A stretch of 64,000 bases of DNA from a bacterium (lineage in GTDB: Bacteria > Hydrothermota > Tepidihabitantia > SM23-42 > JAOAFX01): NCBI GenBank assembly GCA_036796695.1, contig DAIRCK010000012.1, forward strand, positions 8,524-72,523, in the 5' to 3' direction. Below, in pieces: positions 5,215 through 23,850 of the stretch (positions are counted from its first letter, which is position 1; each line of letters starts with the position of its first letter). The position numbers and the translations under genes are program-made. The notes under the pieces are model-generated. The model saw only the letters and a list, made by a program, of their open reading frames with translations, searched no databases and was not told the origin of the DNA.

Positions 5215-5227
5215 GTAGAATCTTTTT

Positions 5228-5253
5228 GGGGTGGGAGGTAAACCTCCCACCCC
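5228..5253 (+). promoter_or_regulatory. Hairpin (ggggtgggagg/taaa/cctcccacccc) between the stop of the upstream gene and the RBS of FG-GAP paralog B; positional analog of the hairpin at 741-770
   Basis: Perfect 11-bp inverted repeat, followed by GGGAGG and ATG ATG. Confidence 0.5.
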
Positions 5254-5261
5254 AGGGAGGA

Positions 5262-7016: not shown

Positions 7017-7056
7017 CTCCCCCTTTTCCAAAGGGGGAGACAAGGGGATTTTTTTT
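7017..7056 (+). terminator. Rho-independent terminator (ctccccc...gggggag stem plus T8 run) after the T9SS cassette
   Basis: A GC-rich inverted repeat is followed by tttttttt. Confidence 0.6.
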
Positions 7057-7084: not shown

Positions 7085-7308
7085 CGATACGAGCAGCGAA
7101 ACCGTATAACGATAGACGATAAAAATAGGGACTTCAGTCCTGAGAAATTTGAGGCTAAACTCTCTACTCCATATTTTTTCTCGCTACTTGCTACTCTCTA
7201 CTCGCTACTCTCTACAGAGTTAATAATTTTGAATTTGTTTCGGATTTCGTGCTTCGGATTTCGGATTTAACTCTGATACGGGACGCGACACCGTATAACG
7301 ATTAACGA
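7085..7308. repeat. Two approximately 35-bp direct repeats (gatacgagcagcgaaaccgtataacgatagacgat and gatacgggacgcgacaccgtataacgattaacgat) flanking about 155 bp of low-complexity tandem repeats (tactcgctactctc x2, ttcggat x4) and a small hairpin
   Basis: Seen directly in the sequence. The region is noncoding in any plausible frame. Confidence 0.45.
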
Positions 7309-8330
7309 TCTTTTTCTCCATCGGTTCTGCCAATCGCCCTAATTATATGCCTCAATTCCTCTATCAATATTTTAAAACCATCAATGGTCAAGGATTGGGG
7401 ACCATCTGACAATGCCTTATCTGGATTATTATGAACCTCAACCATTATTCCATCTGCACCTGCGGCAATCGCTGCCCTGGAAAGGGGCAAGACCATATCC
7501 CTTTTTCCTGAAGCATGGCTCGGGTCTACAATTACGGGCAGATGTGATACTTTCTTTAATTCAGGAATACTACTAATGTCAAGGGTAAAACGGGTGAAAT
7601 CACTAAATGTCCTTATCCCCCTTTCGCAAAGAATGACATTATAATTACCTTCAGACATTATATATTCTGCAGCAAGGAGAAATTCTTGGATTGTTGATGC
7701 CATTCCCCTTTTTAATAAAATTGGTTTTTTGCTCAATCCTGCCTTTTTTAATAGCGAATAATTCTGCATATTCCTGGCACCAATCTGGATAACATCAACA
7801 TACTCTTCAACAAGAGGAAATGTCTCGGTATCAATCGCCTCTGAGACAACTGGCAAACCCGTTTCTTTCTTTGCTTTAGCAAGGATCTTTAGTCCTTTCT
7901 CACCAAGACCCTGGAATGTGTATGGTGAGGTCCTTGGCTTGAATGCCCCTCCCCTGAGCATATCTGCACCAAAACTCTTTACTGCCCTGGCAATCTCAAT
8001 GGTCTGTTTTTCAGACTCAACTGCGCAGGGCCCAGCAATGATTACTGGTTTTCTATCTCCAATTATTACATCACCAACCTTTATCTTTGTATCATCCGGT
8101 TTCATCTCCCTGCTGGTCAGTTTATAAGGCTTGGTAACGACAATCACATCTATCACACCATCAAGCCCCTCAAGCCTATTTTTATCAACCATATCTTTAT
8201 TTCCTGTTATACCGATTGCTACACGCTGGGCACCCTTTATAGGGTGTGGTTTCAAACCCATCTGTTTTATAACCCTGCACACATTTTTAATCTGTTCATC
8301 AGTTGCATCTTTATGCATCACAACGAGCAT
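7302..8330 (-). CDS. aroF: 3-deoxy-7-phosphoheptulonate (DAHP) synthase, type I-beta with N-terminal regulatory domain
   Basis: The core resembles the Thermotoga-type DAHPS/KDO8PS family (…IIAGPCAVES…KPRTSPY-FQG…). It sits at the 3' end of the aromatic supraoperon. Confidence 0.85.
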   Translation of the reverse strand: MLVVMHKDATDEQIKNVCRVIKQMGLKPHPIKGAQRVAIGITGNKDMVDKNRLEGLDGVIDVIVVTKPYKLTSREMKPDDTKIKVGDVIIGDRKPVIIAGPCAVESEKQTIEIARAVKSFGADMLRGGAFKPRTSPYTFQGLGEKGLKILAKAKKETGLPVVSEAIDTETFPLVEEYVDVIQIGARNMQNYSLLKKAGLSKKPILLKRGMASTIQEFLLAAEYIMSEGNYNVILCERGIRTFSDFTRFTLDISSIPELKKVSHLPVIVDPSHASGKRDMVLPLSRAAIAAGADGIMVEVHNNPDKALSDGPQSLTIDGFKILIEELRHIIRAIGRTDGEKDR

Positions 8331-8341
8331 ATTACCTCCTT

Positions 8342-9112
8342 TTATTCCCTTATTGTTGCCTCTTTAAATTTTTTTAGCAACAATTTTAAATCTTCTTTAT
8401 TTCTTATTGCCTCAATTATTCTGCTACCAATTACAACACCATCTGCAACCTGGCACAATCTCTTAACCTGCCCAGGATTTGAAATACCAAATCCTACGAC
8501 AACAGGCTTTTTTACAATCTTTTTAACCTTTCTTATAAATAAGGGCAGGGTTTCAGGAAGGTTTTTCCTGACCCCGGTCGTCCCTGTCACACTCACACAA
8601 TATACAAAACCACTACTCATCTTGCCAATCAATCCTATCCTTTCTCTATTCGATGTCGGCGCAATCAATTGTATTAAATCTATTTTATAATTATCAGCAA
8701 ATTTTTTAATCAAGCCTGACTCCTCAACCACGATGTCTGGCACGATCAATCCTGAAATACCGATTTGAGAAACCTTTTTAAAAAATTTTTTAATACCGAA
8801 TGCAAGGACTGGGTTCAAATAGGTCATAATGACGAGTGGTGTTTCAATCTCTATCTTTGCGATTTCCTCAAGTATCTCATTAAGTGATACCTTATTCTTC
8901 AATGCGATATTTGATGCGTACTGTATCGTCTTTCCATCTGCAATCGGGTCTGAAAAAGGAATTCCTATCTCAATAATGTCTGCGTATAAACTGCTCTCTT
9001 TTATATATTTGATTGATTCTTTAATCCCTGGATAACCTGCAGTAAGGTATACAATCAATGCAGATTCATTATTTTTTTTAAGATATTCAAACTTTTTATC
9101 AATCTTATTCAT
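8342..9112 (-). CDS. trpA: Tryptophan synthase alpha chain
   Basis: The N-terminal ...[10 protein letters not shown]... and [12 protein letters not shown] motifs are typical of TrpA. It overlaps trpB by 8 nt. Confidence 0.9.
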
Positions 9113-10289
9113 AAAACTCCTCTACAATCTCGAGGTCCTTATCACCCCTTCCTGAAAGGTTTACAATGATTATCTTTTCTGGGTCCATCTTCTTTGCCTC
9201 ATTGATTGCAACATAAACTGCATGGGCGCTCTCTAATGCTGGTATTATCCCTTCAGTCTCAGTGAGAATTTTAAATGCCTTGAGTGCCTGTTTATCTGTG
9301 CAAGAAGTGTACTGGACACGACCCCTAAATTTTAAAAATGAATGCTCAGGACCGACCCCTGGATAATCAAGGCCTGGAGCAATGGAATGGGTTGGACTTA
9401 TCTGCCCATCATCATTCTGGAGCACATAACTCATTGCCCCATGGAGCACACCAGGCTTGCCACAGGAGAGTGTAGCAGAATGTGCCTTAGAATGAATTCC
9501 CATGCCTCCAGCCTCAACACCGAGCATTTTTATTTCTGTATCAAGGAAGGGATGAAAAAATCCTATCGCATTACTACCACCACCAACACAGGCAATGAGG
9601 AGGTCAGGCATCCTTCCTTCTATCTTCAATATCTGTTTTTTCGTCTCTTTACCAATGATTGATTGAAAATCGCGCACCATCATTGGATATGGATGTGGAC
9701 CAACGACCGAGCCGATACAATAATGAGTCGTCCTCACATTTGTGACCCAATCCCTTATCGCCTCATTTATCGCATCCTTCAAGGTCTGTGTTCCTGAATC
9801 AACTGGTATAACTTCTGCACCGAGGAGTCTCATCCTTAATACATTCATCCTTTGCCTCTGAACATCCTTTTTTCCCATATATACCACACATTTCAAACCG
9901 AATAAGGCACAGGCAGTTGCAGTTGCTACACCATGCTGTCCAGCACCGGTCTCTGCAATTATCCTATTTTTCTTCATCATCTTTGCAAGAAGGACCTGGC
10001 CAATCGTATTATTTATCTTGTGCGCACCAGTATGGAGGAGGTCTTCCCTTTTAAAATAAATCCTTGCACCTTTTAATCGCTCTGATAGATTCCTTGCATA
10101 GTATAATGGAGTTGGTCTTCCTGCATAATTTCTTAAATAATGATTCAGTTCTCTTTTAAAATCAGGATTGTTCTTAAGACGATTATATGCATCTTCAAGT
10201 TCAATTAATGCCGGCATCAAAGTCTCAGGGACGAATCTGCCACCAAAACTGCCGAAATACCCATTTTTGTCAGGTTTTTTATAAGCCAT
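9105..10289 (-). CDS. trpB: Tryptophan synthase beta chain
   Basis: [13 protein letters not shown]... and HTGAHKINN... with the PLP lysine. The start was taken at the internal MAYKK; the ORF track extends to 10376 in overlap with aroQ. Confidence 0.9.
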
Positions 10290-10719
10290 CTCCTCCCCCA
10301 TTAATAAAGTATTCAAGTGCAAGGATATATCCATACCAGCCAAGCCCTGTAATCTGACCAATGCATACTGGTGCAATCAAACTTTTGTGTCGGAAAGGCT
10401 CGCGACTGTAAATATTGCTGATATGGACCTCTATTGCCTTTATACCAACCCCCTCAATCGCATCCCTTATTGCTACAGAGGTGTGTGTGTATGCACCAGG
10501 GTTTATTATGAGTCCAGAATACTCATCAGAATTATGTATCATCTCTATTATCCTTGATTCAGAATTTGATTGGTATATGTCAACCTGGACCCCTCTTTTC
10601 TCTGCATAATCAATAATCTTTTTATTGATCTCATCAAGTGATAACCTGCCATATACCTCTGGATTCCTCTTTCCCAAAAGATTGAGGTTCGGACCATGGA
10701 TTAAAAGAATTTTTTGCAT
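10279..10719 (-). CDS. aroQ: 3-dehydroquinate dehydratase, type II
   Basis: The 146-aa product reads [20 protein letters not shown]...HISNI-SRE-FRH, the type II DHQase signature. Confidence 0.9.
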
Positions 10720-12251
10720 AAAACCTCCTTTATCTTCACTCTACCAATCTTTTCAAAGATTGGCATCCTTATCTTTTCTCGTTTCATCTTTTTATCCTGT
10801 AAAATAAATCCCTTTATATCCTGTCTTTTAATAAATCCTGGCAGTTCTGCAGGCAAAGAATATTCTTTTAATAGTTCAATAACTTCAACAGGTATTCTAT
10901 TTTTATTAAAAATACATATCTCCTGGACCATCCCTATTGAGACTGCCTCACCATGTGAAAATCTCTTGTATTTGCCCATTTTTTCAATGATGTGCCCAAT
11001 CGTATGGCCAAAATTGAGGATTTCCCTTATCCCTTTCTCTTCAGTCTCATCATCTTTTATTATCCTACCTTTAATCATTACACATTCTTTTATAATCCTG
11101 AAAAGTGTTGCAGGATCGCGTTCCATTATCAATCCCTTTTTTTCTTTAAGGGTCCTAAATAGTTCCTCTGAGCTGATTATCCCATACTTTATAACCTCAG
11201 CAATACCATTGGAAAATTCTCTATCAGGAAGGGTCATAATCTTTTTAATATCACATACTACACATTCTGGTTGATAGAATGTTCCGAGCATATTCTTTCC
11301 ATATTTTGTATTTACTCCATTCTTACCACCTAACGCAGCATCAACCTGGCAGAGCAGGGTAGTTGGAATATATACAAGCTTGCAACCCCTTTTGAATGTG
11401 GATGCGACAAAACCAGCAATATCAGTAATCACACCACCACCAAGACCGAGTATTATATCCTGCCTTTGAAAATTTATCTTGAATAGGTATTCATAGATAC
11501 TCTCTACAGTTTTAATATTTTTGTATGCCTCACCATCGGGTATTATAAGATAATTAACTTCGTTATCCTGCCTTTTCAATGTCTTTGCCAAATCATCAAG
11601 GTAGAGTGCACCAACAAGTGGATTGGTTATTATAAAAATCCTTTTCTTTTTAAATAGAAGATGGCGATTAGAATCAAATATGATTATAACTGGATAGACC
11701 CTTGATTTTGTATGGATCATTATAGATTCACTCTGGTCAGGATAATCTATCTTCTTTAATTCCAATCTCTTTATTATTTCCCTGGCTACCAATTCCGGTG
11801 CCTTCTCTGTTGTATCAATCTTTATCTCAGCAAAATCATATATTCCTTTTCTCTGCTCCAGAAGATTAAAAAAATCTTTTTTTGATTTGACCAATGGCCT
11901 TGAACCATCCATTTTTATCCTCTTTAATAGAGTCTCTAAATTTGCATAAAGCTGGATAACCCTGCCTGTTTTTTTCAATATTTCACGATTCTTCTCATTC
12001 TTAACAATCCCTCCACCTGTCGCAATAACTACATTCTTCAATCCTTTTATTTTTTCCAGAACCCAGTGCTCTCTTTTCCGAAAATATTCTTCACCTTCCT
12101 TCTCAAAGATTTCTTTTATTGATCTCTGTTCCGCAAGTTCAATCATTCGGTCTGTGGAAAGATAACCAAAATTTAAATTTTCAGCAAGGATTCTACCGAT
12201 TGTATCCTTGCCAGTGCCCATAAATCCTATTAAGATTATGTTTTCAGACAT
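10701..12251 (-). CDS. aroKB: Bifunctional shikimate kinase (N-terminal) / 3-dehydroquinate synthase (C-terminal)
   Basis: The N-terminal P-loop GFMGTGKDTIG is AroK. The C-terminus (...GGGVITDIAGFVAS...LVYIPTTLL-QVDAALGGKNGVN...) is AroB. Confidence 0.85.
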   Translation of the reverse strand: MSENIILIGFMGTGKDTIGRILAENLNFGYLSTDRMIELAEQRSIKEIFEKEGEEYFRKREHWVLEKIKGLKNVVIATGGGIVKNEKNREILKKTGRVIQLYANLETLLKRIKMDGSRPLVKSKKDFFNLLEQRKGIYDFAEIKIDTTEKAPELVAREIIKRLELKKIDYPDQSESIMIHTKSRVYPVIIIFDSNRHLLFKKKRIFIITNPLVGALYLDDLAKTLKRQDNEVNYLIIPDGEAYKNIKTVESIYEYLFKINFQRQDIILGLGGGVITDIAGFVASTFKRGCKLVYIPTTLLCQVDAALGGKNGVNTKYGKNMLGTFYQPECVVCDIKKIMTLPDREFSNGIAEVIKYGIISSEELFRTLKEKKGLIMERDPATLFRIIKECVMIKGRIIKDDETEEKGIREILNFGHTIGHIIEKMGKYKRFSHGEAVSIGMVQEICIFNKNRIPVEVIELLKEYSLPAELPGFIKRQDIKGFILQDKKMKREKIRMPIFEKIGRVKIKEVLCKKFF

Positions 12252-13308
12252 CTTTAATCCTTTTTAAATATTGTTGATAATTCTTTTTCATATCCAGTAT
12301 ATTATCACCGCCAAATTTTTCACAAAATGCCAGGGCAAGGACATAGGCAAGCATTGATTCTGCAATTACACTGATCGCTTCAACTGCACAGACATCGGCT
12401 CTAAAGACTGGTGCAGGACAAGGTCTTTTATTCTTTATATCAAAAGATTTTAACGGATTCTGGAGTGTAGGGATCGGTTTTATATACAACCTTATAAAAA
12501 TCCTTTCTCCATTGCTCATACCACCCTCAATCCCACCTGCATTATTGGTCTTATGATAAAATCCCATTTTTTTATCATAAAATATCTTATCATGAACAGC
12601 AGAGCCATAATGCATTGATGAAAAGATCGCCTCTCCAATTTCAATCCCTTTTACTGAAGGTATTGATAGCATCGCCATACCAATCATACCATCAAGCCTC
12701 TTATCAAATTGTGTATAACTTCCAAGACCTGGACAGACACCATCAGCATAAACCTCAACAATCCCACCGAGTGTATCACCCCTTTGTTTTGCCTGGATTA
12801 TTAATCTTTTTATCTTATTTCTATCCTTTTCCTTTCCAATCTGTCTCACCTGTGAACTTATCGCTATATTAAATTCTTTAAGCAGGAGTTTAAACACCGC
12901 ACCTGCTGCAACCCTTGATACAGTCTCCCGTGCCGATGCCCTTTCAAGGACATCCTGGATATCTAAAAAACCAAATTTCAAAAGACCTGCAAAGTCTGCA
13001 TGGCCAGGTCTGGGAATGGTTATTGAATCTTTAGTTTTTTGTGATAAGAATTCATCCCTGCGATAGTCCTTATTTTTAATAAAGAGCGTTATAGGTGAAC
13101 CGATGGTTTTGCCCATCCTCACACCTGAAAGGATTTCAACAGGCTCTTCTTCCAGTTCCATCCTTTTGCTCCTGCCCATTCCCTGCTTTCGCCTCTTCAA
13201 TTCTTGTCTTATAAAATCAGGGCTGATCTTTAATCCTGCAGGGATTCCATCAATGATTACTGACATACCCTGATTATGTGATTCACCACCTGTTAACATC
13301 CTTATCAT
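12244..13308 (-). CDS. aroC: Chorismate synthase
   Basis: LTGGESHNQG....GRSKRMELEEE... and GGMSNGE motifs. Confidence 0.9.
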   Translation of the reverse strand: MIRMLTGGESHNQGMSVIIDGIPAGLKISPDFIRQELKRRKQGMGRSKRMELEEEPVEILSGVRMGKTIGSPITLFIKNKDYRRDEFLSQKTKDSITIPRPGHADFAGLLKFGFLDIQDVLERASARETVSRVAAGAVFKLLLKEFNIAISSQVRQIGKEKDRNKIKRLIIQAKQRGDTLGGIVEVYADGVCPGLGSYTQFDKRLDGMIGMAMLSIPSVKGIEIGEAIFSSMHYGSAVHDKIFYDKKMGFYHKTNNAGGIEGGMSNGERIFIRLYIKPIPTLQNPLKSFDIKNKRPCPAPVFRADVCAVEAISVIAESMLAYVLALAFCEKFGGDNILDMKKNYQQYLKRIKDV

Positions 13309-13309
13309 T

Positions 13310-14077
13310 CTACACCTCCTTTAATGCTATCTTCATTAAATTGACCGGTCTATATCCAGTCCAGAGTTTGAATGAATACGCTGCCTGGTGAATTAGCATA
13401 GAGATACCATCTATCAACTTTATTTTCTTTGATTTTGATAATTTAAAACGATAATTTATATCATAATACACACTACCGGGTTTTAAAAACGGAATGACCA
13501 TATCCTGGATATCAACAGATGTGCCATTTATAACGATATCCATATTTGACGCATATTGAGAGATTTGTGAAAAATGGATTTTCTTTGCAGGATAGATATG
13601 CAAAATAGATTCAATCTTAGATTCAGTCCTATTAGTAATAAAGACTTCTTTGGGATTTTTTTGACCGAGGAGATATAGACAGGCACGAACAACACCACCA
13701 GCACCAATTATGAGAACCTTTTTATCTTTCAGTCCAATTTTGTGTTCTTTTAAAGAATAAGCAAATCCATAGACATCGGTATTATCACCAATTATCTTCT
13801 TATCCTTTATAACTACTGTATTAACTGCCCCAATCTTTCTGGCGACTGGTGTAAGTTCATTTAAATATTCCATAATCTTAGTCTTATATGGATTTGTGAT
13901 ATTAAAACCAGTAAATCCAAGTTTTATCAATTTATGGAAAACCTCTCCAAGGTCATCAGGTGGAATAGAGAGGAGAAAATAGATACCCTTTATTTTCAAT
14001 CTTCTAAATGCAAAATTATGGATCTTTGGCGAGAGTGTATATTTTAGAGGATAACCGATCACACCAGTGAGGAACAT
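13310..14077 (-). CDS. aroE: Shikimate dehydrogenase
   Basis: GVIGYPLKYTLSP-IHN-AF...NVT-PYK...GAGG-VRA. Confidence 0.85.
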   Translation of the reverse strand: MFLTGVIGYPLKYTLSPKIHNFAFRRLKIKGIYFLLSIPPDDLGEVFHKLIKLGFTGFNITNPYKTKIMEYLNELTPVARKIGAVNTVVIKDKKIIGDNTDVYGFAYSLKEHKIGLKDKKVLIIGAGGVVRACLYLLGQKNPKEVFITNRTESKIESILHIYPAKKIHFSQISQYASNMDIVINGTSVDIQDMVIPFLKPGSVYYDINYRFKLSKSKKIKLIDGISMLIHQAAYSFKLWTGYRPVNLMKIALKEV

Positions 14078-14676
14078 CGCCGCACCTCTTTTATAAATTC
14101 CCGAATTTTTTCTGGGTCTTTTTTACCTGGTGAGCTTTCCACACCTGAACATACATCAACACCATAAGGTCTTAGCATCTTTATCATTGTGCCAACATTC
14201 TTCTCATTTAATCCACCGGCAACGATAAACCTACCTCCAATGGTTTTTATTATCTTCCAATCAAATGTCCTGCCACTCCCTTCACCAGGGTCAAATAGAT
14301 ATGCTGAAACAGAATATCCAGCCATCTCTTTGATGATACCAACTGGATTTGAACTATCATCAATTTTGATCCTCTTTATAATCCGCACACCTTTTATAAG
14401 CCTGCAATATTCGGGTGGTTCAGATCCGTGTAATTGAACGACGTCTATCCCGGTTAAACTGATTATCTTGTTTACCACATCAAGCCGCTCATTTTTAAAT
14501 ACACCAACCGTTGTAATAAATGGTGGTAATTTCTCAATGATATTCTTTGCTATTTCGGGTTCAATATTTCTTGGTGAAGGGGCGAAGATAAAACCAAGCG
14601 CATCGGCGCCAAAATTAGATACGATGAGTCCATCCTCAAGATTGGTAATGCCGCAGACCTTTATTTTAATACTCAT
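14059..14676 (-). CDS. trpF: Phosphoribosylanthranilate isomerase
   Basis: The start MSIKIKVCGIT...DALGFIF was chosen; the ORF track extends 14 codons upstream. Confidence 0.85.
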   Translation of the reverse strand: MSIKIKVCGITNLEDGLIVSNFGADALGFIFAPSPRNIEPEIAKNIIEKLPPFITTVGVFKNERLDVVNKIISLTGIDVVQLHGSEPPEYCRLIKGVRIIKRIKIDDSSNPVGIIKEMAGYSVSAYLFDPGEGSGRTFDWKIIKTIGGRFIVAGGLNEKNVGTMIKMLRPYGVDVCSGVESSPGKKDPEKIREFIKEVRRCSSLV

Positions 14677-15754
14677 CAAGCCACCTGGTTCCTTTTTGAA
14701 AAACTTTTTTAAATGCATCCCTTTTCCCTTTTTTCACAATTTTCATTAGTGCATCCATACACATTGTTAAATTTTTATATAAATCAAGGGTATAAGGATT
14801 TAGCGATTGGATTTCATAATAAAGTTCTGGATTTTCCTTTATCACACTATTGGTTGTCTCCATCTGGGCATTGAATGTTGTACTGGCAATTCTTTTCAAA
14901 TCTTTAAATTCGTAGCCACTATCCATAAGATTTTTTATAAAAAGAACATTTATAAAATGGGAAAGACCGAGAACATATGAAACGAGTCTGTCGTGCTCAT
15001 CAAATGAAAGATTAATGATTCTAACTGCGGTATTCTTGAAAATATTCATTATCATACCATTCGCCTCAGGTGAACCACAATCACAGAGACAGACAACTTT
15101 ATCACTGAGGGTCCGACAGGATGGACCAAACATTGGATGGATGGATGTAATTTTAATATTTTTCTCAATTGCTTTTTTAATTGCTGGAATTATGTGGCTC
15201 TTCACACTTGCAATATCACAGACAACCGCATTGCAATTTAGTTCTGTAAGGGTTTCAATTATATCGGGGACAATAGCAAGCGGTGTAGAAATGACCACCA
15301 GTGATTTTCCTTTTAATCCAGATTTTATATCTTTATAATAACTAAAACCACAACGCCCGGGCAGTTTTATATCATTTATTGCTACCCTGTGCCCTTGATT
15401 CTGCAGGAAATAAGCAAACCATCTGCCCATTCCACCCAGTCCACCAACAATGAGCACATCCTCCTTTTTCCCGGAATAAACTGAATAATGCAATCTCTCC
15501 TGCTGGATACGGGATTGCTCAATGATTTTAGTAATGAGTGTCCGTGTAAAATTTATATCAAGACCAATACCTTCCGCATATCTAATTCCATTTTCAATCA
15601 CGCTCTTTTCTACACTCCAATCCTGGAGTGCAATTCCCATTTTTTTCTTTTCTCTGCCGATCGCATCGCTCAATAACATTCGCTTCTGGATTAGGTTCAA
15701 TATCTTCTGGTCGGTCTTTTTTATTTTCATTCTGAGAAGTTTTAATCGATCCAT
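14666..15754 (-). CDS. tyrA: Bifunctional chorismate mutase (AroQ class, N-terminal) / prephenate dehydrogenase
   Basis: The N-terminal roughly 90-aa CM helix bundle (LRMKIKKTDQKILNLIQKRMLLSDAIG) is followed by the NAD-binding GGLGGMG PDH domain. Confidence 0.8.
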   Translation of the reverse strand: MDRLKLLRMKIKKTDQKILNLIQKRMLLSDAIGREKKKMGIALQDWSVEKSVIENGIRYAEGIGLDINFTRTLITKIIEQSRIQQERLHYSVYSGKKEDVLIVGGLGGMGRWFAYFLQNQGHRVAINDIKLPGRCGFSYYKDIKSGLKGKSLVVISTPLAIVPDIIETLTELNCNAVVCDIASVKSHIIPAIKKAIEKNIKITSIHPMFGPSCRTLSDKVVCLCDCGSPEANGMIMNIFKNTAVRIINLSFDEHDRLVSYVLGLSHFINVLFIKNLMDSGYEFKDLKRIASTTFNAQMETTNSVIKENPELYYEIQSLNPYTLDLYKNLTMCMDALMKIVKKGKRDAFKKVFQKGTRWLDEY

Positions 15755-16515
15755 TTCAATTCCTTTATTTTTTCTGCCATATCATCTGCCTTCAATATAG
15801 AAGTACCAACGAGTATCCCATCAAAACCAGCATCCTTCAATCTCCTCACATCCTCTGCCTTTTTAATTCCACTCTCACTCACGGTATAATATCGCTCGGG
15901 AACCGATTCTATCAAATTTAGAGAAATATTGATGTCGACTTCAAAATTATTTAGATTCCGATTATTAATACCGATTATCTCGGTATCTGTATTAAATGCC
16001 TTTTTTAAATCATCGATTGTATGGACTTCAACGATCGTCGCCATACCAAGTTTATGGGCAAGTCGGACAAATTCTTTCAATCTTTCAGGGCTCAATATAC
16101 AGGCAATGAGTAGTATGGCATCAGCAAAAATTCCACAGGATTCATAAATCTGATATTCATCAATGATAAAGTCTTTCCTCAACACAGGTAGTTTTGTGAA
16201 TTTTTTTACATTTTGTATATCTTCATTTCTTCCGCTGAAAAATTTTTCATTCGTTACAACCGATATGCCATCAGCACCGGATTTTTCATAGATAAAAACA
16301 ATCTTCTCTATGTCCAATCCGTTTATAATCGCTCCAGTTGATGGTGATGACCTTTTTATTTCAGCGATGAGTGCGATTTGCCCATTTTTGAAAATCTTTT
16401 TAAAATCGCGCCTTTCTTTGTTCTCGGTTTTTAACAGTTCTTTAAGTGGCTTCAAACCCTTTTTTTTATCTATCTCATTTTTTGTGTTCTCAATTATCAC
16501 TTTTAGTATGTCCAT
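15742..16515 (-). CDS. trpC: Indole-3-glycerol phosphate synthase
   Basis: IAEIKRSSPS-G...FI-DEYQIYE....GADAILLI...NNRNL. Confidence 0.9.
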   Translation of the reverse strand: MDILKVIIENTKNEIDKKKGLKPLKELLKTENKERRDFKKIFKNGQIALIAEIKRSSPSTGAIINGLDIEKIVFIYEKSGADGISVVTNEKFFSGRNEDIQNVKKFTKLPVLRKDFIIDEYQIYESCGIFADAILLIACILSPERLKEFVRLAHKLGMATIVEVHTIDDLKKAFNTDTEIIGINNRNLNNFEVDINISLNLIESVPERYYTVSESGIKKAEDVRRLKDAGFDGILVGTSILKADDMAEKIKELKWID

Positions 16516-17530
16516 TTACAAACCTCCTCAGTTCCTCAAGTTTATTTAATGCGGCACCAGAAAAAATTGATTCCCGAGCCATTTCCACCCCCTGTTTAAT
16601 AGTCTCAGCCTTTCCAGAAACATATATTGCGGCGCCTGCATTTAATAGTGCAGTATCTGTTTTGGGTCCTGGTTCACCTTTTAAAATAGAAATAAATGAA
16701 TCAATATTTTCCTTGTTATTCCTCACCCTTAATTCTTCCATACTACATCTTTTCATTCCATAATCCTCTGGAGAAATCTCGAATTCCATAATGCCCTTAT
16801 TCTTTATCTCAAGCACATAGGTTCTGGCGCTGGTTGTTATCTCATCAATTCCATCCGCACTGTATACGATTAATGCGTGCCTGACACCGAGGTTGTTCAA
16901 TGTCTTTCCAATTTTTTCGAGAAATTCCTTTCTACATACCCCGATGACCTGTTGTTCAACCAATGCAGGATTACATATTGGTCCAAGGATATTGAAAATT
17001 GTCCTGATACCAATCTCTCTTCTTGGCCCAATTACATTTTTCATTGCCGGGTGAAAGAGCGGAGCAAAGAGAAAACCAATTCCTATTTTTTCTATGCACT
17101 CCTTTATTAGTTCATAATCAATATCAAGTTTAATGCCCAGTGCGGAAAAAAGATCAGCACTTCCACAAAGGCTTGAGACCGACCTGTTTCCATGTTTTGC
17201 CACAAAACAGCCCGCACCTGCAGCAATAAATGCTGAGGTCGTTGAAATGTTGAATGTATGCATTCCATCACCACCAGTGCCACAGGTATCAACAAGATTT
17301 TGAGCCTGGCAGTTTATCTTTATCATCTTTGTGCGCATTGCCTTACAGAAACCTGTAATTTCCTCTATGGTCTCACCCTTCATCCTTAACGCAGTTAGCA
17401 AGGATGCTATCTGGGCTGGTGTTGCTTTGCCCTCCATAATTTCAATACATACCTGATATGCCTCATCTTCATTCAATGATTTATTTTCTACAATCTTTTT
17501 TATTGCATCTTGTATCCTTGACTCAGACAT
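16490..17530 (-). CDS. trpD: Anthranilate phosphoribosyltransferase
   Basis: [34 protein letters not shown]. The start was taken at MSESRIQ. Confidence 0.9.
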
Positions 17531-18518
17531 TATACCTCCTTGTATTAAAACAGGAAAAGTTTCCAGTGTGGCAGGCGACCCCATTCTGGTTCACTATTGC
17601 AAGGATTGCATCGCGGTCGCAATCTGCCCTCAATTTTATAACATCCTGAAAATTCTTTGATGTCCTTCCTTTTAGCCATAATTCCTTCCTGCTTCTTGAA
17701 AAATACCACATCTTTCCCGTCTCAAATGTTTTTCTTAATGATTCCTTATTCGAATACGCCAGCATCAATACAAGACCCGATATATCCTGTGTAATTGTTG
17801 GAATCAATTCGCTTTTCCAGTTAAGTGATTCTATAAATGCATCAACAAGTGAAATTCGTTTTGTATATAATGCCATTCCCAGCTGGACATCGATATCCAT
17901 CGCCGCGAGAATTTTTACCTCGTTCAGCGATGACACACCACCTGCCACGGTTATTTTTTTATCAGTTTTTTCACGAATTGCCTTCGCCTTTTCAATATTA
18001 ATGCCTTGCATCATTCCCTCTGTTTCAACAAATGTAAAGAGAAACTCATTCGTGTATGATTCAAATTCCTTTATTACATCAAATAATTCGATATCTGTCT
18101 TCTTTTGCCATCCACTGACAACAATTTTGTTATTGAATGTATCAAGTGCAATGATGATTCTCTCCTGTCCTATTTCCTTTTTCAGGGCAGAAAGAAATTT
18201 GTGGTTGATATTTCCTTTCTCAAATGCCCTGGAACCGATAATAATTTTATTTGCACCAGCAAGGATCAATTCCTTTGCCTTTTCAATACTTCTTATACCG
18301 CCGCCAACGCGACAATCTGCTACCTTAAGCAAATCTTTGATTAAATTCAGATTTTCGCCTTTGCCCATTGCTGCATCAAGGTCAATAACCGCAACCTCAT
18401 TATACCGATTAAACTCTTTTGCAAGTTTCACTGCATCATCATATTCTAAAACCTTTTCTCTACCCTGTCTTAACTGAACAACCTTATTATTCATCAAATC
18501 AATAGAACCTATTACCAT
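17523..18518 (-). CDS. hisA/hisI: Fusion protein: ProFAR isomerase HisA (residues ~1-235) + phosphoribosyl-AMP cyclohydrolase HisI (residues ~236-331)
   Basis: The N-terminal (beta-alpha)8 HisA carries IDL…GGGIRS…GGVSSL. The C-terminal [68 protein letters not shown] is the HisI PRA-CH signature. Confidence 0.8.
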
Positions 18519-19267
18519 CTCACCCTCACTCCTTTCTTTTTAAGAAATCTTTTTATCTGTGGGATTGTAAATTTTTTATAATGGAGAACCGATGCGAGAA
18601 GAACCGCATCAGCATTCCCATACTTTATCACATCATAGATTTGGTTTAAATTACCTGCGCCTCCTGATGCAATAATCGGAATCTTTACAGCCGATGATAC
18701 AGCATCTGTCAATTCAATATCATAACCCATCTGTGTCCCATCGCGGTCAATGGAATTCAATAGTATCTCTCCAGCACCAAGTTCTTCACACCTTTTTGCC
18801 CATTCTATCACATCAATCTTAGTATCAACCCTTCCTCCATATGTGTAGCAATGCCATTTATTATTTACCTTTGCCGCATCAATTGAAATCACAATACACT
18901 GGGAACCAAATATCCTTGCACCTTCACTTATCAATTTAGGATTTTCAATGGCACCGGTGCAAATCGCCACCTTATCCGCACCAGCATTGAGTAAAACCCT
19001 CATATCCTCTATCTTTCTTATACCACCACCAACGCATAGCGGAATAAAAACCTTCTTTGCAACCGCATTCACAACATCAATTATTGCCCTTCTCTTCTCC
19101 ACGGACGCAGTGACATCAAGGAAGATTAATTCATCAGCACCCTGGTCATTGTAGTATTGGGCAAGTTTTACTGGGTCACCTGCAACATTTAAATTCTTAA
19201 ATTTTATCCCTTTTACAACCCTGCCTTTATCAACATCAAGACAGGGTATTATTCTTATCGTCAGCAT
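18512..19267 (-). CDS. hisF: Imidazole glycerol phosphate synthase cyclase subunit
   Basis: [34 protein letters not shown]. Confidence 0.9.
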
Positions 19268-19860
19268 AGTTCTACCCATCTCTTTAATAAATCAAGTCCA
19301 GCCTTCCCACTCTTCTCAGGATGGAACTGGACTGCATATATATTTCCCTTATTAATGACTGATGGATAACTGATTCCGTATTCGGTGCGACCGAGTACAA
19401 TCTCTTCTTCTGGTGTATCAAGATAATAACTGTGTAGAAAGTAAAAATAAACTTTCTTCCTTTGGGATTTAAAAATTGGCGATGGCTTTATCACCTCTAC
19501 ACTATTCCATCCAATCTGAGGAATTTTGGACATTTGGAATTTTCTCATCCGTCCTTTGAATATACCGAATCCACTAACACCTTCTGCCTCTTCACTTGAT
19601 TCAAATAAAAGTTGGAGACCGAGGCAGATACCAAGATAGGGCTTATCTGCATTTAGCCATTCAATCAATCTTTCCAACAACCCCATCTTTTTCAGTTTTG
19701 TAATTGCCGCACCAAATGCACCAACACCAGGTAGTATTATCCGTTCTATATTTTTAAGCCCTTTCTCATCCTTTATTAGACGATTCTTCAAGCCCAAATA
19801 ATCAAGGGCATTCTTTATTGAATGCAAATTCCCTGCACCATAGTCTATAATCCCTATCAT
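19261..19860 (-). CDS. hisH: Imidazole glycerol phosphate synthase glutaminase subunit
   Basis: MIGIIDYGAGNL-S--NAL...GICLG-QLL triad region. Confidence 0.9.
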   Translation of the reverse strand: MIGIIDYGAGNLHSIKNALDYLGLKNRLIKDEKGLKNIERIILPGVGAFGAAITKLKKMGLLERLIEWLNADKPYLGICLGLQLLFESSEEAEGVSGFGIFKGRMRKFQMSKIPQIGWNSVEVIKPSPIFKSQRKKVYFYFLHSYYLDTPEEEIVLGRTEYGISYPSVINKGNIYAVQFHPEKSGKAGLDLLKRWVELC

Positions 19861-20435
19861 ATCACCCCTTTTGTGCTCGGCACATAGTCTTTGTTAATTG
19901 TGCATGCCTGTTTTAGGGCATGGGCAAATGCCTTGAATATTGCCTCAAGTTTGTGATGGTCAGACCTTCCACATATTAATTGAATGTGTAAAGTGCACTG
20001 GCATCCATTAGCAAACCCGGCAAAAAAATCCTGTATTACATCGGTCTTCAACTCACCGATTTTGTCGCTTCTAAAACTGCCCGAGAATTTCAAAAAAGTC
20101 CTGCCTGAGATATCAATCGCAACCATTGCCAGTGCTTCATCCATTGGATATATGAAGCACCCTGCCCGATTTATTCCTTTCTTATCTCCTAATGCCTTAT
20201 TCAATGCAAGACCGAGACAAAGACCTGTATCCTCAACCAGATGGTGCTGGTCAACTTCAATATCACCGTTTATCTTTGCCTTTATATCAAATCCGCTGTG
20301 CCGACTCAATGTTTCAAGCATATGATTCAAAAATCCAATCGGTGATTCAATATCCGATTCTCCTTTACCTTCTATTTTTAATCTTATATGAATATCTGTC
20401 TCCTTCGTCTTTCTTTCTATCTCCCCTTTTCGCAT
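19857..20435 (-). CDS. hisB: Imidazoleglycerol-phosphate dehydratase
   Basis: R-TKET-I-I-L...D-HH--EDTG--LG-A. Confidence 0.9.
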   Translation of the reverse strand: MRKGEIERKTKETDIHIRLKIEGKGESDIESPIGFLNHMLETLSRHSGFDIKAKINGDIEVDQHHLVEDTGLCLGLALNKALGDKKGINRAGCFIYPMDEALAMVAIDISGRTFLKFSGSFRSDKIGELKTDVIQDFFAGFANGCQCTLHIQLICGRSDHHKLEAIFKAFAHALKQACTINKDYVPSTKGVI

Positions 20436-21493
20436 CCTGCACCTCCTTTTTTTAATATCTGATTTAAATTTTTTAAAAATGTATCATTCTCTTCAGGCTT
20501 TCCAATTGTTACCCTGAGCATATCTTTTAAAAGAGGATTACTGAACCTCCGCAAAAGTATACCTTTTTTATAGAGCCGCTCAAATAATGACCCTGCTGAA
20601 TGATTTTTTATTTTAAAGAGAATAAAATTCGCCCTTGATGGAACTGGACTTATTTGGGGAATGACCTCTAATTCCCTGAATACCCTCTCCCTTTCCTTAA
20701 CAATCTTATCAACAACCATTTTAACAAACCTTCTTTTCTTTAACAAATAATCACCTGCGACCTGCTGGAATATTCCTACAGAGAATGGAAGTTTTGTTTT
20801 TACAATCTGTCTTGCTATCTCAGGTTGGGCAAGGAGATAACCGAGCCTTATCCCGGCAAGTCCAAAAGCCTTTGAGAATGTCCTCAGTATTAAGAGGTTA
20901 TCATACTTATTAAGGAGTCGCTGCGCAGTCAAACCATAAAATTCAAAATATGCCTCGTCAATTACTACAATGGACTTTTTCATTTTAACAATCTCTTCTA
21001 TCCCATCTATACTTATTGAAGTTCCAGTTGGATTGTTTGGTGATGCGATGAATGTTATCCTTGAATTATATACATTCCTGCATAATCCCTCTACATCAAA
21101 AGAGAAGTCTTCTTTGAGTCGCACCTCATTTATTCTCAGGTTCATTATCTTTGATAGATATGGATAGATTGCAAAACCCGGTGTAATAAGTGTAACATTA
21201 TCGCCTTTATCACAATAGGTAAGGATTATTGCGAGTATCAATTCGTTTGAACCATTACCGATTATTGTCCCTTCAACTGGAAAATCTGTATAACGGGAAA
21301 GGGACTTCTTTAAACTTAGTAATTCGTTTGATGGATACCTGTTCCAGGATAATCTAATCAGCCTATTTGCTATCTCTTTTTTGTATTCTAATGGTATATC
21401 AAATGGCGATTCATTCTGATTCAATTTTATCCTTGCCTCCTGGGGAACCTCATAAGCGGGCAACTGGATTACTGAATCTTTGATTCTTATCAT
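20417..21493 (-). CDS. hisC: Histidinol-phosphate aminotransferase
   Basis: Class II aminotransferase; ...KLNQNESP... and the SKAFGLAG-R-GY PLP-lysine region. Confidence 0.85.
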   Translation of the reverse strand: MIRIKDSVIQLPAYEVPQEARIKLNQNESPFDIPLEYKKEIANRLIRLSWNRYPSNELLSLKKSLSRYTDFPVEGTIIGNGSNELILAIILTYCDKGDNVTLITPGFAIYPYLSKIMNLRINEVRLKEDFSFDVEGLCRNVYNSRITFIASPNNPTGTSISIDGIEEIVKMKKSIVVIDEAYFEFYGLTAQRLLNKYDNLLILRTFSKAFGLAGIRLGYLLAQPEIARQIVKTKLPFSVGIFQQVAGDYLLKKRRFVKMVVDKIVKERERVFRELEVIPQISPVPSRANFILFKIKNHSAGSLFERLYKKGILLRRFSNPLLKDMLRVTIGKPEENDTFLKNLNQILKKGGAGCEKGR

Positions 21494-22344
21494 ACTACAA
21501 CCTTTCTGAATTCATATTCAAGGATGTCAGTCGCACCAAGTCTCTTTAACTGGGGAATAAGTTTTATTACCTCACTCTTCTTCACCGCCACCTTCACTGC
21601 AAATCCTCTTGCGCCATATAAAGGAGCCACAGTTGGCGAACGCATACAGGGCAAGATTTTGACAATTCTATCGAATTTCTCCTTAGGCACATTCATCTCA
21701 AGCATCACCCTTTCCCGCGCATCAAGCACTGATTGAAATAACATCCTTAATTCCTCAATTTTGTTTCTTTTCCAGGGGTCTTTAAGTATTTGCCTGCCTG
21801 CGATGAATCTCGTGGTTGATTCCATAATCACCTTAAATACTTTCAATTTATGCTCCCTCAAAGTATTCCCGGTTGCTGTGTTATCAATTATCATATCTGC
21901 GTCTTCAGGCGGAAAAACTTCAGTCGCTCCATAGGTGCGTAAGTATTTAAATCTGAACCCTTCTTTATTTAGAAAATCTCTGGTCAATCGTTCATACTCT
22001 GAGGCAACGATTATTTTTTTCTTACGCAGGGTTGAAATTTCTGTGGTTTCAGGGATTGCAGATACAATCTTTACTGGGTCTAATTTCAAATCCATAATCT
22101 CAATCACATCGGCATTTGATTCTATAACCCAATCCTTCCCTGTGAAACCCGCATCATGTGAACCAATCTCAATCAAATCCGGTATATTCTGGGGTCTGAG
22201 TATCTTAACTTGAAGTTCAGGGTCATTAACAAAAGGCCTGTAAACCCTTTCATTAATGTTAATATATATCCCTGCATCATTAAAAAGTCTGATCACGCCC
22301 TCAAAGATACTTCCTTTGGGTATGACAATTTTCAATCTTTTCAA
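21490..22344 (-). CDS. hisG: ATP phosphoribosyltransferase, long form with C-terminal regulatory domain; TTG start
   Basis: LKIVIPKG---E-----F-DAG...D-GF-G-DWV... The RBS GGAGG lies 5 nt upstream of the TTG. Confidence 0.9.
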   Translation of the reverse strand: MKRLKIVIPKGSIFEGVIRLFNDAGIYININERVYRPFVNDPELQVKILRPQNIPDLIEIGSHDAGFTGKDWVIESNADVIEIMDLKLDPVKIVSAIPETTEISTLRKKKIIVASEYERLTRDFLNKEGFRFKYLRTYGATEVFPPEDADMIIDNTATGNTLREHKLKVFKVIMESTTRFIAGRQILKDPWKRNKIEELRMLFQSVLDARERVMLEMNVPKEKFDRIVKILPCMRSPTVAPLYGARGFAVKVAVKKSEVIKLIPQLKRLGATDILEYEFRKVVV

Positions 22345-22434
22345 TCAAACCTCCTTTCATTGATATAAATTCAAAGAATGGTTTTTTATATTTTTTTTAA
22401 TTTTATGGATTATGTATGTGGTAAAAAAGTCGTT

Positions 22435-22486
22435 GCACTTCCGGGACCAAAAAGGATATATTGACCCTTATTGGGCCCGGAAGTGC
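22435..22486 (-). terminator. Leader attenuator, an intrinsic terminator inside the his-trp-aro 5' leader: the 11-bp stem gcacttccggg/cccggaagtgc, followed on the minus strand by AACGACTTTTTTA
   Basis: An inverted repeat plus a T-run on the transcribed (minus) strand sits about 90 nt upstream of the hisG start. Confidence 0.55.
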
Positions 22487-22610
22487 CAATACCAGTAATG
22501 ATTAAAGTGGAATCTTGTGTGGTTGTGGTTAAGTGCAAATAAATCCGATGTTGTCCTTACAGAGCAATCGGTCTTTAAATATTTATTCAAATAAATCTTA
22601 ACCACGATGC

Positions 22611-22639
22611 AAGTATATTCAAAAAAAGAATTTTGTCAA
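22611..22639 (-). promoter_or_regulatory. Sigma70-type promoter of the his-trp-aro supraoperon (TTGACA-N17-TATACT on the minus strand)
   Basis: The reverse complement of 22634-22639 is TTGACA and of 22611-22616 is TATACT; the spacer is 17 nt. It lies downstream of the terminator of the preceding minus-strand gene. Confidence 0.55.
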
Positions 22640-22675
22640 GAAGAAAATGTAAATGAATATGACTATTAAAAGCAA

Positions 22676-22697
22676 GGGGGTGGCGAAAGCCACCCCC
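22676..22697 (-). terminator. Rho-independent terminator (gggggtggc-gaaa-gccaccccc, then a T-rich tract on the minus strand) for the upstream minus-strand T9SS gene
   Basis: A perfect 9-bp GC stem with a GAAA tetraloop; on the minus strand it is followed by TTGCTTTTAAT. Confidence 0.65.
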
Positions 22698-22715
22698 TGG
22701 ATTATGTATCAAAGT

Positions 22716-23850
22716 TTAATCCGCAATCACTATCTTAACGCAGCCTTTTAATGTTGATGTGTTTAACCGTATGAAATAAACCCCGGATTTTACATTCTCT
22801 CCATTACTATCTTTTCCATTCCAGACAAAATTGAATCCATCCTGTATCCAAATTCCTTTATAAAGTGTATTCACAAGTTTACCTGCAACATCATAGATAC
22901 TGCACTCAACAGATGTTCCCTTTTTGATTGGAGATAAAATGTGAACTATGTCTCTTGCTGGATTAGGATATACTGTCAAATAGAAATGATTATTTACATC
23001 TGTATTTTTTTCACTTTCTTGAGCTCCTACACCGTAGAAGCCGGCGACCTTTAAGACCGCCCCTGGACAGGAAGTTCAGGTACCGTACTGGTAAAGTGTT
23101 AACCAGTATGTCCCGTCTCTTGGATCACGAACAACACCCCGGATATTACAGGAATCTGCAGGGTATAATCTGAAGAAATTTATTTTCTGACAGTTCACAG
23201 GATTTAAAGCAAAGACACCTGCACTATCAAGGGTCGAACTGGTGTTGAAAAATGTGTATGCATTGAGTAAATGGGCCGGGTTAGCACCCTGGGCAGGGAC
23301 ATAATCAAGACATCTTGATCCATACCAGGCACCCTGATAAGGATGGTTCATCTGCCTGATTACCGTGCCCATTGTATCCACACAATAGATATATTGAGTC
23401 TGACCACCGCTCGACCTTCTATCTGAGATATAGATCTGACGATTTGTATTATCCCAGGCAAGTCCACAAGGATAATCAATATAAGAGACACTGAAAGAAC
23501 GTAGGACTGCCCCGGATGTATTTATTTTATAAACAGTCTTGTGGCGTTTATTCAGAACCCAGAATGTATTGTCATAGGCGCAGTATTTTAAATCCACACA
23601 ACCACTGTCATTATTTGGAGCGGGAATCGTGCCATAACTTGTAACGAAACTGTCTGAAGAAGCGATGTAGATGACCTGTGTTGTGTAATTAACATAATAG
23701 ATACGATTCGTATTCGGGTTATAAGTAATTCCATAGGTTCCCTGAGGATAAACACCCCTTAACCAGTATCTTTCACCAATCAATCGCGTAGGAGATTGAG
23801 GCCGTAATTACAATTAGAACGAGGCTTGAAAAGATTATTTTTTTAACCAT
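22716..23850 (-). pseudogene. Disrupted T9SS cargo gene: signal-peptide ORF (MVKKIIFSSLVLIVITASISYAIDW*, 23771-23850), frameshift into the 235-aa beta-propeller-like body (23076-23783), then a single in-frame TGA (23076-23078) before the intact T9SS CTD (22716-22979)
   Basis: The reading frame runs continuously across the TGA (…YQYGT*TSCPGAVLKVAGFYGVGAQESEKNTDVNNHFYLTVYPNPARD…). The signal peptide is in a different frame from the body, and the repeated gattgattgg sits at the junction. Confidence 0.55.

Follow-up and report, generated by a model that had tools for sequence, protein, structure and literature searches.

The 64-kb window (the whole stretch of 64,000 nucleotides that was analysed) carries on its minus strand 17 his, trp and aro genes running from 22344 to 7302, each overlapping its neighbour or lying at most 11 nt from it. 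NCBIfam scans gave the order hisG-hisC-hisB-hisH-hisF-hisA/hisI fusion-trpD-trpC-tyrA (chorismate mutase/prephenate dehydrogenase)-trpF-aroE-aroC-aroK/aroB fusion-aroQ-trpB-trpA-DAHP synthase, and these gene identities bear out the label of a his-trp-aro supraoperon given in the initial annotation. By gene content the operon supplies enzymes for His, Trp and Tyr, and Phe is reached via a second operon of relatives; hisD, trpE, trpG, aroA and pheA were found neither among the 17 genes nor elsewhere in the 64-kb window. HisG and TrpD have the use of PRPP in common, and HisC may double as an aromatic aminotransferase. Translation of hisG starts at a TTG preceded by an AAGGAGG Shine-Dalgarno sequence, and sites of this type are also used by internal genes of the operon. 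Upstream of hisG lies a leader with its own promoter, a short open reading frame (ORF) and a terminator-like hairpin (Table 1).

Table 1. Features of the leader and of the operon behind it (positions in the window)
Feature	Position	Strand	Basis or remark
Sigma-70-type promoter TTGACA-N16-TATACT	22612..22639	-	11/12 consensus matches
Leader ORF, 45 codons + UAA, (f)M/V-VKIYLNKYLKTDCSVRTTSDLFALNHNHTRFHFNHYWYWHFRAQ-stop	22468..22605	-	open frame, start GTG
P1 5' arm GUGGUUAAG, start codon included	22597..22605	-	9-bp helix with 22525-22533
P2 hairpin within the ORF (CCGAUUGCUC...GACAACAUCGG)	22545..22571	-	covariation
P1 3' arm CUUAACCAC, codons L25 N26 H27	22525..22533	-	pairs with 22605-22597
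His/Phe-rich codons H27 N H T R F32 H33 F34 N35, less constrained	22501..22527	-	
Candidate regulatory heptad H36-Y37-W38-Y39-W40-H41-F42 (CAU UAC UGG UAU UGG CAC UUC)	22480..22500	-	
Terminator-like hairpin, 11-bp lower stem GCACUUCCGGG/CCCGGAAGUGC	22435..22486	-	fold and conservation
Spacer AACGAC and U6 run	22423..22434	-	sequence read
G-poor, A/C-rich tract, hairpin to hisG ribosome-binding site	22366..22422	-	
hisG Shine-Dalgarno AAGGAGG	22350..22356	-	hisG start TTG at 22344
hisG-led operon	7302..22344	-	candidate regulated unit, 17 genes

Relatives of the leader and a second operon

Copies of the leader were collected from the regions upstream of hisG, from a degenerate DNA-pattern scan of metagenome contigs and from a peptide search, which contributed P0001. 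The HisG-based scan, with one genome per species, assigned the window to candidate division WOR-3 through L001-L008 (76-89% HisG identity); two distant lineages, L012 and L009, share 66-68% HisG identity. At least 120 metagenome stretches matched the pattern and the leader was present in at least 10 of them (nine recognised by a hairpin test or by eye, plus the incomplete L123), which left at least seven new leaders after removal of duplicates, while the other matches listed are chance occurrences inside genes. The comparison set comprises at least 16 distinct WOR-3 leaders, and the conservation counts given below refer to these 16.

The same leader stands before a second operon in L201/L202/L203, L139 and L169, with equal promoter spacing, the GTG, the heptad and the hairpin. 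In L201 this operon reads DAHP synthase-pheA-aroA-trpE-trpG-hisD, and in the shorter loci L139 and L169 its first three genes (DAHP synthase, pheA and aroA) are visible. The L201 operon supplies hisD, trpE, trpG, aroA and pheA, which are absent from the hisG operon. A second copy of the leader was not found in the 64-kb window with up to three mismatches allowed.

The promoter and a probably leaderless start

A consensus scan placed the promoter boxes at 22639-22634 (TTGACA) and 22617-22612 (TATACT); both boxes had been recognised in the initial annotation, and only the spacer, given there as 17 nt, had to be corrected to 16 nt. TTGACA/TATA(C/A)T boxes with equal spacing are kept in all homologous leaders as well as in the distant L009 and L012. 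The leader ORF has no Shine-Dalgarno sequence. A GTG lies 6 nt past the -10 box, at 22605, and a GTG 6-7 nt past this box is the sole conserved start codon in every WOR-3 leader. The distant lineages show an ATG in this place, the layout being TTGACA-N16-TATACT-N7-ATG in L012 and TTGACA-N16-TATAAT-N6-ATG in L009. A start codon conserved at the expected transcription start points to a leaderless mRNA, and the leader peptide is probably translated from such an mRNA with GTG 22605 as its predicted start. As a leaderless start, GUG tends to be less efficient than AUG.

Predicted leaderless layouts are common in this genome. Counting ORFs of at least 40 codons, we found 16 promoter-plus-start layouts of the leaderless type in the 64-kb window, against about two expected from Markov resamples, and they include at least eight genes of at least 211 aa. 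First genes with this layout start at 26063(-), 34576(-), 34665(+), 39270(-), 47926(+), 51258(+), 54802(+) and 57280(+). The frequency of the layout, together with the conserved start codon at the predicted transcription start, answers the earlier caveat that neither an AUG nor a clear Shine-Dalgarno sequence is present. The start chosen earlier, a TTG at 22590, is unconserved in relatives and also lacks a Shine-Dalgarno sequence, and we replaced it by the 5'-terminal GTG. A peptide of about 41 aa had been given for the TTG, which in fact yields 40 aa; the better-supported GTG yields 45 aa, and a length of 45 residues is more likely than one of about 41.

The leader reading frame and its candidate sensing codons

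The reading frame noticed earlier was recovered; it is open from the promoter onwards and ends at the UAA at 22470-22468, inside the hairpin. The C terminus of the peptide is ...ALNHNHTRFHFNHYWYWHFRAQ-stop and the translation of the leader frame ends in ...NHNHTRFHFNHYWYWHFRAQ-stop; the tail reads F-H-F-N-H-Y-W-Y-W-H-F-R-A-Q-stop. The enrichment in His, Phe, Tyr and Trp reported for this tail is real: these residues fill 10 of the 11 positions of FHFNHYWYWHF, which is the single top 11-residue window for the four amino acids in all six frames of the 64-kb window (score 10, against a maximum of 9 in 20 shuffles). The count of five His in the last 15 sense codons has to be revised, as three are found there and five in the last 19.

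Across the 16 WOR-3 leaders the frame contains no in-frame stop, compared with 31 and 55 stops in the other two frames. The ORF measures 135, 138 or 141 nt, so all insertions and deletions are in frame. Nucleotide identity over its first two thirds is only about 50%, and a stop-free frame was reproduced in none of 2000 shuffles of codons 4-24. These observations suggest that the ORF is under selection to stay open. Seen as peptides, the WOR-3 leaders vary freely at the N terminus but share the final 13 residues and the context of the stop codon without exception. The amino acids of the heptad are the same in all 16 sequences, and the only changes are at synonymous third positions (CAU/CAC and UAC/UAU, in H36, Y37 and Y39). 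In the preceding F32-N35, non-synonymous changes do occur, and they often lead to a different member of the His/Phe/Tyr/Trp set (F to Y, F to H, N to H). This pattern suggests a coding-type constraint on the putative sensing block. The last seven nucleotides of the heptad form the beginning of the 5' arm of the hairpin; the heptad thus enters this arm (G120-G130 of the transcript), in line with the earlier statement that the regulatory codons abut or overlap it.

The peptide has nearly always escaped annotation. A search of 5.8 billion protein clusters returned one match, P0001 from a WOR-3 genome, where NCBI annotates a 45-aa "hypothetical protein" with the homologous GTG start; with this single match, annotated proteins did not suffice to build a wider family. 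The distant lineages nevertheless encode comparable peptides, M-ITDLL...LYFGHCYWYWHFRT-stop in L012 and M-QKTKR...SHYCFWHFRTTGSDRA-stop in L009, each with an ATG start. Both keep Y-(W/C)-(Y/F)-W-H-F-R in frame, with all four amino acids present in each, and they differ in the residues past H-F-R (RT-stop in L012, RTTGSDRA-stop in L009). The open frame and the H/F/Y/W enrichment are therefore conserved in the 16 WOR-3 relatives and in two distant lineages. In other phyla hisG is preceded by leader peptides with His runs, such as MRRHHHHTAHHW in Calditrichaceae and HHHHHH in Kangiellaceae, and by this comparison the WOR-3 element looks like a counterpart of the classical his leader adapted to a mixed operon.

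Folding of the leader RNA

The RNA starting at the GTG folds into a long-range helix (P1), an internal hairpin (P2) and a long 3' hairpin, with a minimum free energy of -57.1 kcal/mol for the leader (z = -6.0 against 200 dinucleotide shuffles). P1 corresponds to the long-range inverted repeat noticed earlier, and is a helix of 9 bp formed by 22605-22597 and 22533-22525. In 15 sequences its pairs are unchanged or remain possible as wobbles, with zero compensatory changes; P1 may serve to keep initiation from happening late or more than once. P2 shows compensatory double changes at six of its nine pairs, and a role in RNA polymerase pausing or synchronisation is plausible. Neither P1 nor P2 is conserved in L012 or L009; as far from its 5' end as P2 is in WOR-3, L012 carries a hairpin of 10 bp unrelated to P2.

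Above its lower stem, the long 3' hairpin has a middle helix (CCAA/UUGG) and an apical one (AAGGGU/AUCCUU), and the UAA stop lies within it. The lower stem is invariant in WOR-3 and shows no covariation there; in L012 the helix is kept with changed base pairs (CACUUCCGAACCUA/UAGGUUCGGAAGUG). In the WOR-3 alignment the 3' 80 nt or so of the leader are almost invariant at the nucleotide level, loops included, and this near-invariance exceeds what codon identity and stem pairing demand.

Mutually exclusive terminator and antiterminator helices, whose presence had been put forward as a check, were not found by folding: truncated co-transcriptional folds, an RNAalifold consensus and folds constrained by a ribosome footprint yielded no conserved antiterminator. 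A pairing of the 3' arm with UUGCACUU near P1 was rejected, as it appeared only in the constrained fold of the window and the upstream GCAC motif is limited to the window, L006 and L147.

A model of control by ribosome stalling and its alternatives

Taken together, we consider it likely that the element is a translated, codon-sensing leader-peptide transcription attenuator for His, Phe, Tyr and Trp. Whether the mechanism is direct ribosomal occlusion of an intrinsic terminator is, in our estimate, an even call. In the model, transcription would start at or within a nucleotide of GTG 22605, and the nascent RNA would serve as a leaderless mRNA for the 45-residue peptide, whose N-terminal two thirds would be unconstrained filler. 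The codons for H36-F42 would be met just before and inside the 5' arm of the long hairpin, which is followed by a short U-run. Poor charging of His-, Tyr-, Trp- or Phe-tRNA would stall the ribosome on the heptad, where it would cover the 5' arm and block the hairpin, and RNA polymerase would continue into hisG and the 16 genes behind it. With all four tRNAs charged, the ribosome would get to the UAA within the hairpin and depart, upon which the hairpin would form and most transcripts would stop ahead of hisG.

Since a stall at the codons of any of the four amino acids would have the same outcome, the element would behave as an OR gate, and since no conserved antiterminator was found, the stalled ribosome itself would have to cover the 5' arm. 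We modelled this with a 28-nt footprint: with H36 in the A site the stem stays intact, whereas it loses 2 bp with Y37, 5 bp with W38, 8 bp with Y39 and all 11 bp with W40-F42. The heptad thus coincides with the positions at which stalling could let a ribosome mask the terminator, and it has codons for all four amino acids. As the UAA lies inside the hairpin, a ribosome that finishes the peptide covers the 5' arm too, so that termination under plenty would require a delay of RNA polymerase; a delay until the ribosome leaves implies a putative RNA polymerase pause. The complete proposal, in which a 45-residue peptide with a leaderless start integrates four inputs as an OR gate without antiterminator RNA, the stalled ribosome takes the place of the antiterminator and the two mixed operons are joined into one His-plus-aromatic regulon, has in our view equal chances of being right or wrong.

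The sequence behind the stem bears on how transcripts would end. The terminator reported in the initial annotation is present as far as the 11-bp stem and the U6 are concerned, but AACGAC separates the two, and the U-run ends 79 nt ahead of the hisG TTG rather than the approximately 90 nt given for the terminator. All homologues have a C/A-rich spacer of 5-8 nt between stem and U-run, and the U-run is degenerate or nearly absent in L006, L186 and L201; in L012 a 17-bp stem runs straight into a U-rich tail of more canonical appearance. Because the leader U-run is displaced or degenerate and canonical terminators at other places in the window (771-740(-) and 44548-44519(-)) have the U-run right next to the stem, intrinsic termination at the leader hairpin is uncertain. 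Two further pairings were considered and rejected. A pairing of the 5' GUGGUU with an AACCAC spacer would reach up to the U-run, and the spacer is complementary in no more than about half of the homologues; an extension of the stem through UGGU/ACCA or UGGCAC/GUGCCA leaves a spacer of 5-6 nt, the latter adding 2 bp in L005, L133, L139, L169 and L201.

Past the hairpin the RNA is poor in G, with 1 G against 11 C in the first 60 nt in the window and 1-7 G against 8-14 C across homologues, and it carries a semi-conserved motif, CAUAAAA..CCAUAAA, that reaches L012. This tract leaves room for a factor-dependent (Rho-type) termination step. The sensor would then be the same, with Rho or another factor ending transcripts on the untranslated G-poor, C/A-rich RNA past the stop and the hairpin only shaping the timing of ribosome and RNA polymerase or the access to the tract. 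Such a step would fit the occurrence of the tract in every homologue, the motif shared with L012, and a U-run that is displaced and sometimes missing in the leader and adjacent to the stem in the canonical terminators of the window. We regard it as unlikely all the same. With the ribosome stalled on the upstream side of the hairpin, a loading site on the downstream side would stay unprotected, which makes readthrough on starvation hard to derive; moreover, the U-rich tail of L012 resembles that of a normal intrinsic terminator, and the tract is mostly A-rich, not C-rich.

The invariance of the last 13 residues and the stop context in WOR-3, next to a free N terminus, would also be expected of an arrest or effector peptide, with HYWYWHFRAQ-stop stalling the ribosome near the stop on free amino acids (TnaC-like) or acting in trans; a ribosome held at the stop inside the hairpin would likewise block hairpin formation. 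This reading is quite improbable, given that the residues past H-F-R are explained by the stem that they encode and differ in L012 and L009, that conservation falls on precisely those four amino acids that the regulated genes produce, and that TnaC-type sensing induces on excess, the wrong sign for a biosynthetic operon.

Known RNA families were searched as well. Rfam 15 at gathering thresholds returned no family over the whole 64-kb window, and at E <= 10 the region 22000-23000 gave only chance-level sRNA and miRNA matches far below threshold. This also disposes of the T-box (RF00230), named earlier as an identity to exclude, for which there was no match at E <= 10 over the leader and none at the gathering threshold window-wide; His_leader, Trp_leader, Phe_leader and other curated amino-acid leaders had no match in the leader or the window either. 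A TRAP-type trp leader (9-11 (G/U)AG triplets at a spacing of 2-3 nt) was rejected, as the 296-nt leader region holds one such triplet and no run of three. A structured RNA switch bound by a metabolite, protein or tRNA, with an incidental ORF, would account for the conserved 3' 80 nt with its loops, for a covarying P2 beside an invariant or wobble-compatible P1 and for a fold z of -6, and yet it is highly improbable in view of a frame open in 16 of 16 leaders with every indel in frame, core substitutions that are synonymous only, a start codon fixed at the predicted transcription start of three lineages whose upstream sequences are unrelated, an upstream half (P1/P2) that is not conserved in L012 or L009, and the lack of any Rfam match at E <= 10, T-box included, and of TRAP-type repeats.

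If the leader is indeed a codon-sensing attenuator as proposed, attenuation would extend to the uncultured phylum WOR-3, and one peptide would sense four amino acids across pathways. Translation of the sensor would be leaderless and the design minimal, with the ribosome directly masking the terminator, and the two operons, which between them contain most of the enzymes identified for the four amino acids, would be tied together. In terms of regulation, the element would thereby offer a reason why his, trp and aro genes are joined, unusually, in supraoperons. It is a candidate new Rfam family, built around a conserved small ORF that gene callers nearly always miss, and a candidate compact multi-input amino-acid sensor for synthetic biology.

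Comparison with known attenuation systems

Leader-peptide attenuation is textbook knowledge, and nearly all described leaders serve a single pathway, in Proteobacteria and a few Gram-positives. The enterobacterial hisL, trpL and pheL leaders likewise have a short 5' ORF with codons for the end product near its end and a hairpin before the first gene, and in them ribosome stalling reports tRNA charging, as proposed here. In contrast to the single-amino-acid runs of these classical leaders, the WOR-3 codons mix four amino acids from two pathway families. The WOR-3 leader further differs by a leaderless-type GUG without Shine-Dalgarno sequence, by the lack of a detectable 2:3 antiterminator, by codons and a stop that overlap the terminator hairpin, by a displaced U-run and by having no Rfam match.

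In E. coli pyrBI and pyrE, it is the ribosome and not an antiterminator helix that masks a terminator overlapping or abutting the leader ORF. The signal there is the speed of RNA polymerase, set by the UTP level, with close coupling leading to readthrough, whereas codon stalling would be the signal in WOR-3. Linkage of aromatic and histidine genes is known from the aro supraoperon of B. subtilis (aroFBH-trpEDCFBA-hisC-tyrA-aroE), which is controlled by TRAP on (G/U)AG repeats. Such repeats are absent from the WOR-3 leader, and the B. subtilis operon differs in that the WOR-3 arrangement takes in the whole his pathway.

Leaderless leader peptides, whose transcripts begin with the start codon itself, have been predicted for attenuation in Deinococcus deserti (PMC4007540). 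Those peptides address one amino acid each and stand before single-pathway or tRNA synthetase genes, unlike the four amino acids and the mixed operon seen here. In actinobacterial ilvB leaders, Ile/Val/Leu codons overlap a candidate terminator and there is no obvious classical antiterminator; in Streptomyces coelicolor, mutation of the candidate regulatory codons of ilvB left regulation unaffected (PMC1262725). Belonging to another pathway and phylum, these leaders are a precedent for the layout of the WOR-3 element, not for its function.

The nearest described case is the AroR leader of Corynebacterium glutamicum, with Phe-Tyr-Phe upstream of aroF (Neshat et al. 2014, as summarised in PMC11802643). 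AroR resembles the WOR-3 leader in placing mixed aromatic codons before an operon led by DAHP synthase, with which the second WOR-3 operon also starts. It has three regulatory residues and responds to Phe only, whereas the WOR-3 leader adds Trp and His codons together with his and trp genes (PMC11802643). Searches of open-access full texts brought up neither a described His-plus-aromatic leader peptide nor an account of attenuation in WOR-3. To our knowledge, a four-input regulatory logic free of an antiterminator is undescribed for any cultivated bacterium. Against this background, what appears to be new in the WOR-3 leader is the combination of putative four-amino-acid sensing, a predicted leaderless sensor ORF, an antiterminator-free layout and two complementary mixed operons.

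Sequence downstream of the leader hairpin and at the operon end

The roughly 60 nt lying 3' of the leader hairpin are strongly depleted of G, with 1-7 G against 8-14 C in the window and its homologues. This comparison took in the window, the WOR-3 relatives L001-L008, further WOR-3 loci (L133, L139, L166, L169, L186 and L201) and the more distant L012. Within this tract we found a semi-conserved CAUAAAA..CCAUAAA motif, which is kept even in L012. One possible role for the tract is as a site where a Rho-type factor loads or where the RNA is processed.

At the other end of the transcription unit, where the his-trp-aro operon converges with a plus-strand gene ending at 6995, a G+C-rich 10-bp hairpin (7017-7039) separates the two ends and probably serves as a terminator in both directions. 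Read on the plus strand, its U8 run lies 9 nt beyond the stem, a displacement with the same geometry as in the his-trp-aro leader. The gene ending at 6995 (5226-6995) and the gene 779-2521 contain identical stretches (6540-6659 and 2069-2188), which both include a string resembling a promoter as well as a 27-nt hairpin sequence; this identity indicates that the two, on either side of gene 2518-5214, are recently duplicated paralogues.

Probable leaderless starts and the gene preceding the leader

In the window, many operon-first genes combine a TTGAC-type -35 and a TAnnnT -10 with a start codon only 5-6 nt past the -10, and no Shine-Dalgarno sequence is present at these genes; AAGGAGG-type sites are used by operon-internal genes. 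Sixteen such promoter-plus-start arrangements were seen versus about 2 expected by chance. Judged from this short spacing and the missing Shine-Dalgarno sequences, this WOR-3 genome seems to make frequent use of leaderless mRNAs.

Immediately upstream of the leader is a gene (22716-23783, minus strand) whose last part encodes a T9SS type A sorting domain. This domain occupies an 87-codon ORF of its own (22716-22979), preceded by a 235-codon ORF (23076-23783) that matches no family. The two ORFs may represent one gene for a secreted protein that has been split or frameshifted. The gene's terminator (22698-22675) is positioned 36 nt upstream of the leader -35 box.

Operon content and gene order

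HisA (residues 2-226) and a HisI-type phosphoribosyl-AMP cyclohydrolase (residues 227-326) are fused in a single 331-aa protein (17523-18518, minus strand). HisE is the usual fusion partner of HisI; neither hisE nor a histidinol phosphatase was recognised among the genes of the window's his-trp-aro operon. In related WOR-3 genomes the same leader also precedes a second operon, DAHP synthase-pheA-aroA-trpE-trpG-hisD. In the window's genome, by contrast, the his operon ends with the DAHP synthase gene. By this comparison, gene order between the two leader-headed operons is shuffled within the phylum.

Location of features in the window and in other loci
Feature	Location	Strand
G-depleted tract	window 22366-22434	-
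Leaderless-type first genes (-35/-10/start spacing)	window 26063, 34576, 39270	-
Leaderless-type first genes (-35/-10/start spacing)	window 34665, 37142, 47926, 51258, 54802, 57280	+
Second operon behind the same leader	L201 10001-16589; also L202, L203, L139, L169	
His-run ORFs upstream of hisG	L022, L024, L047, L059, L061-L079	

Leader ORFs before hisG in other lineages

Short ORFs with classical His runs, such as MRRHHHHTAHHW, HHFHHHHPHH and HHHHHH, precede hisG in Calditrichaceae/Calditrichaeota, Treponematales, Vampirovibrionales and Kangiellaceae genomes. To our knowledge, the majority of these phyla are not commonly named in connection with his attenuation. L009 is a relative with a higher GC content, and its leader ORF (M..SHYCFWHFRTTGSDRA*, ~2815-2950) extends across a short hairpin of 8 bp to end 9 nt past it; a 9-bp helix pairs its Tyr/Cys/Phe codons with a segment further upstream. 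The L009 layout differs from that of the WOR-3 leader and is closer to classical 1:2 pairing.
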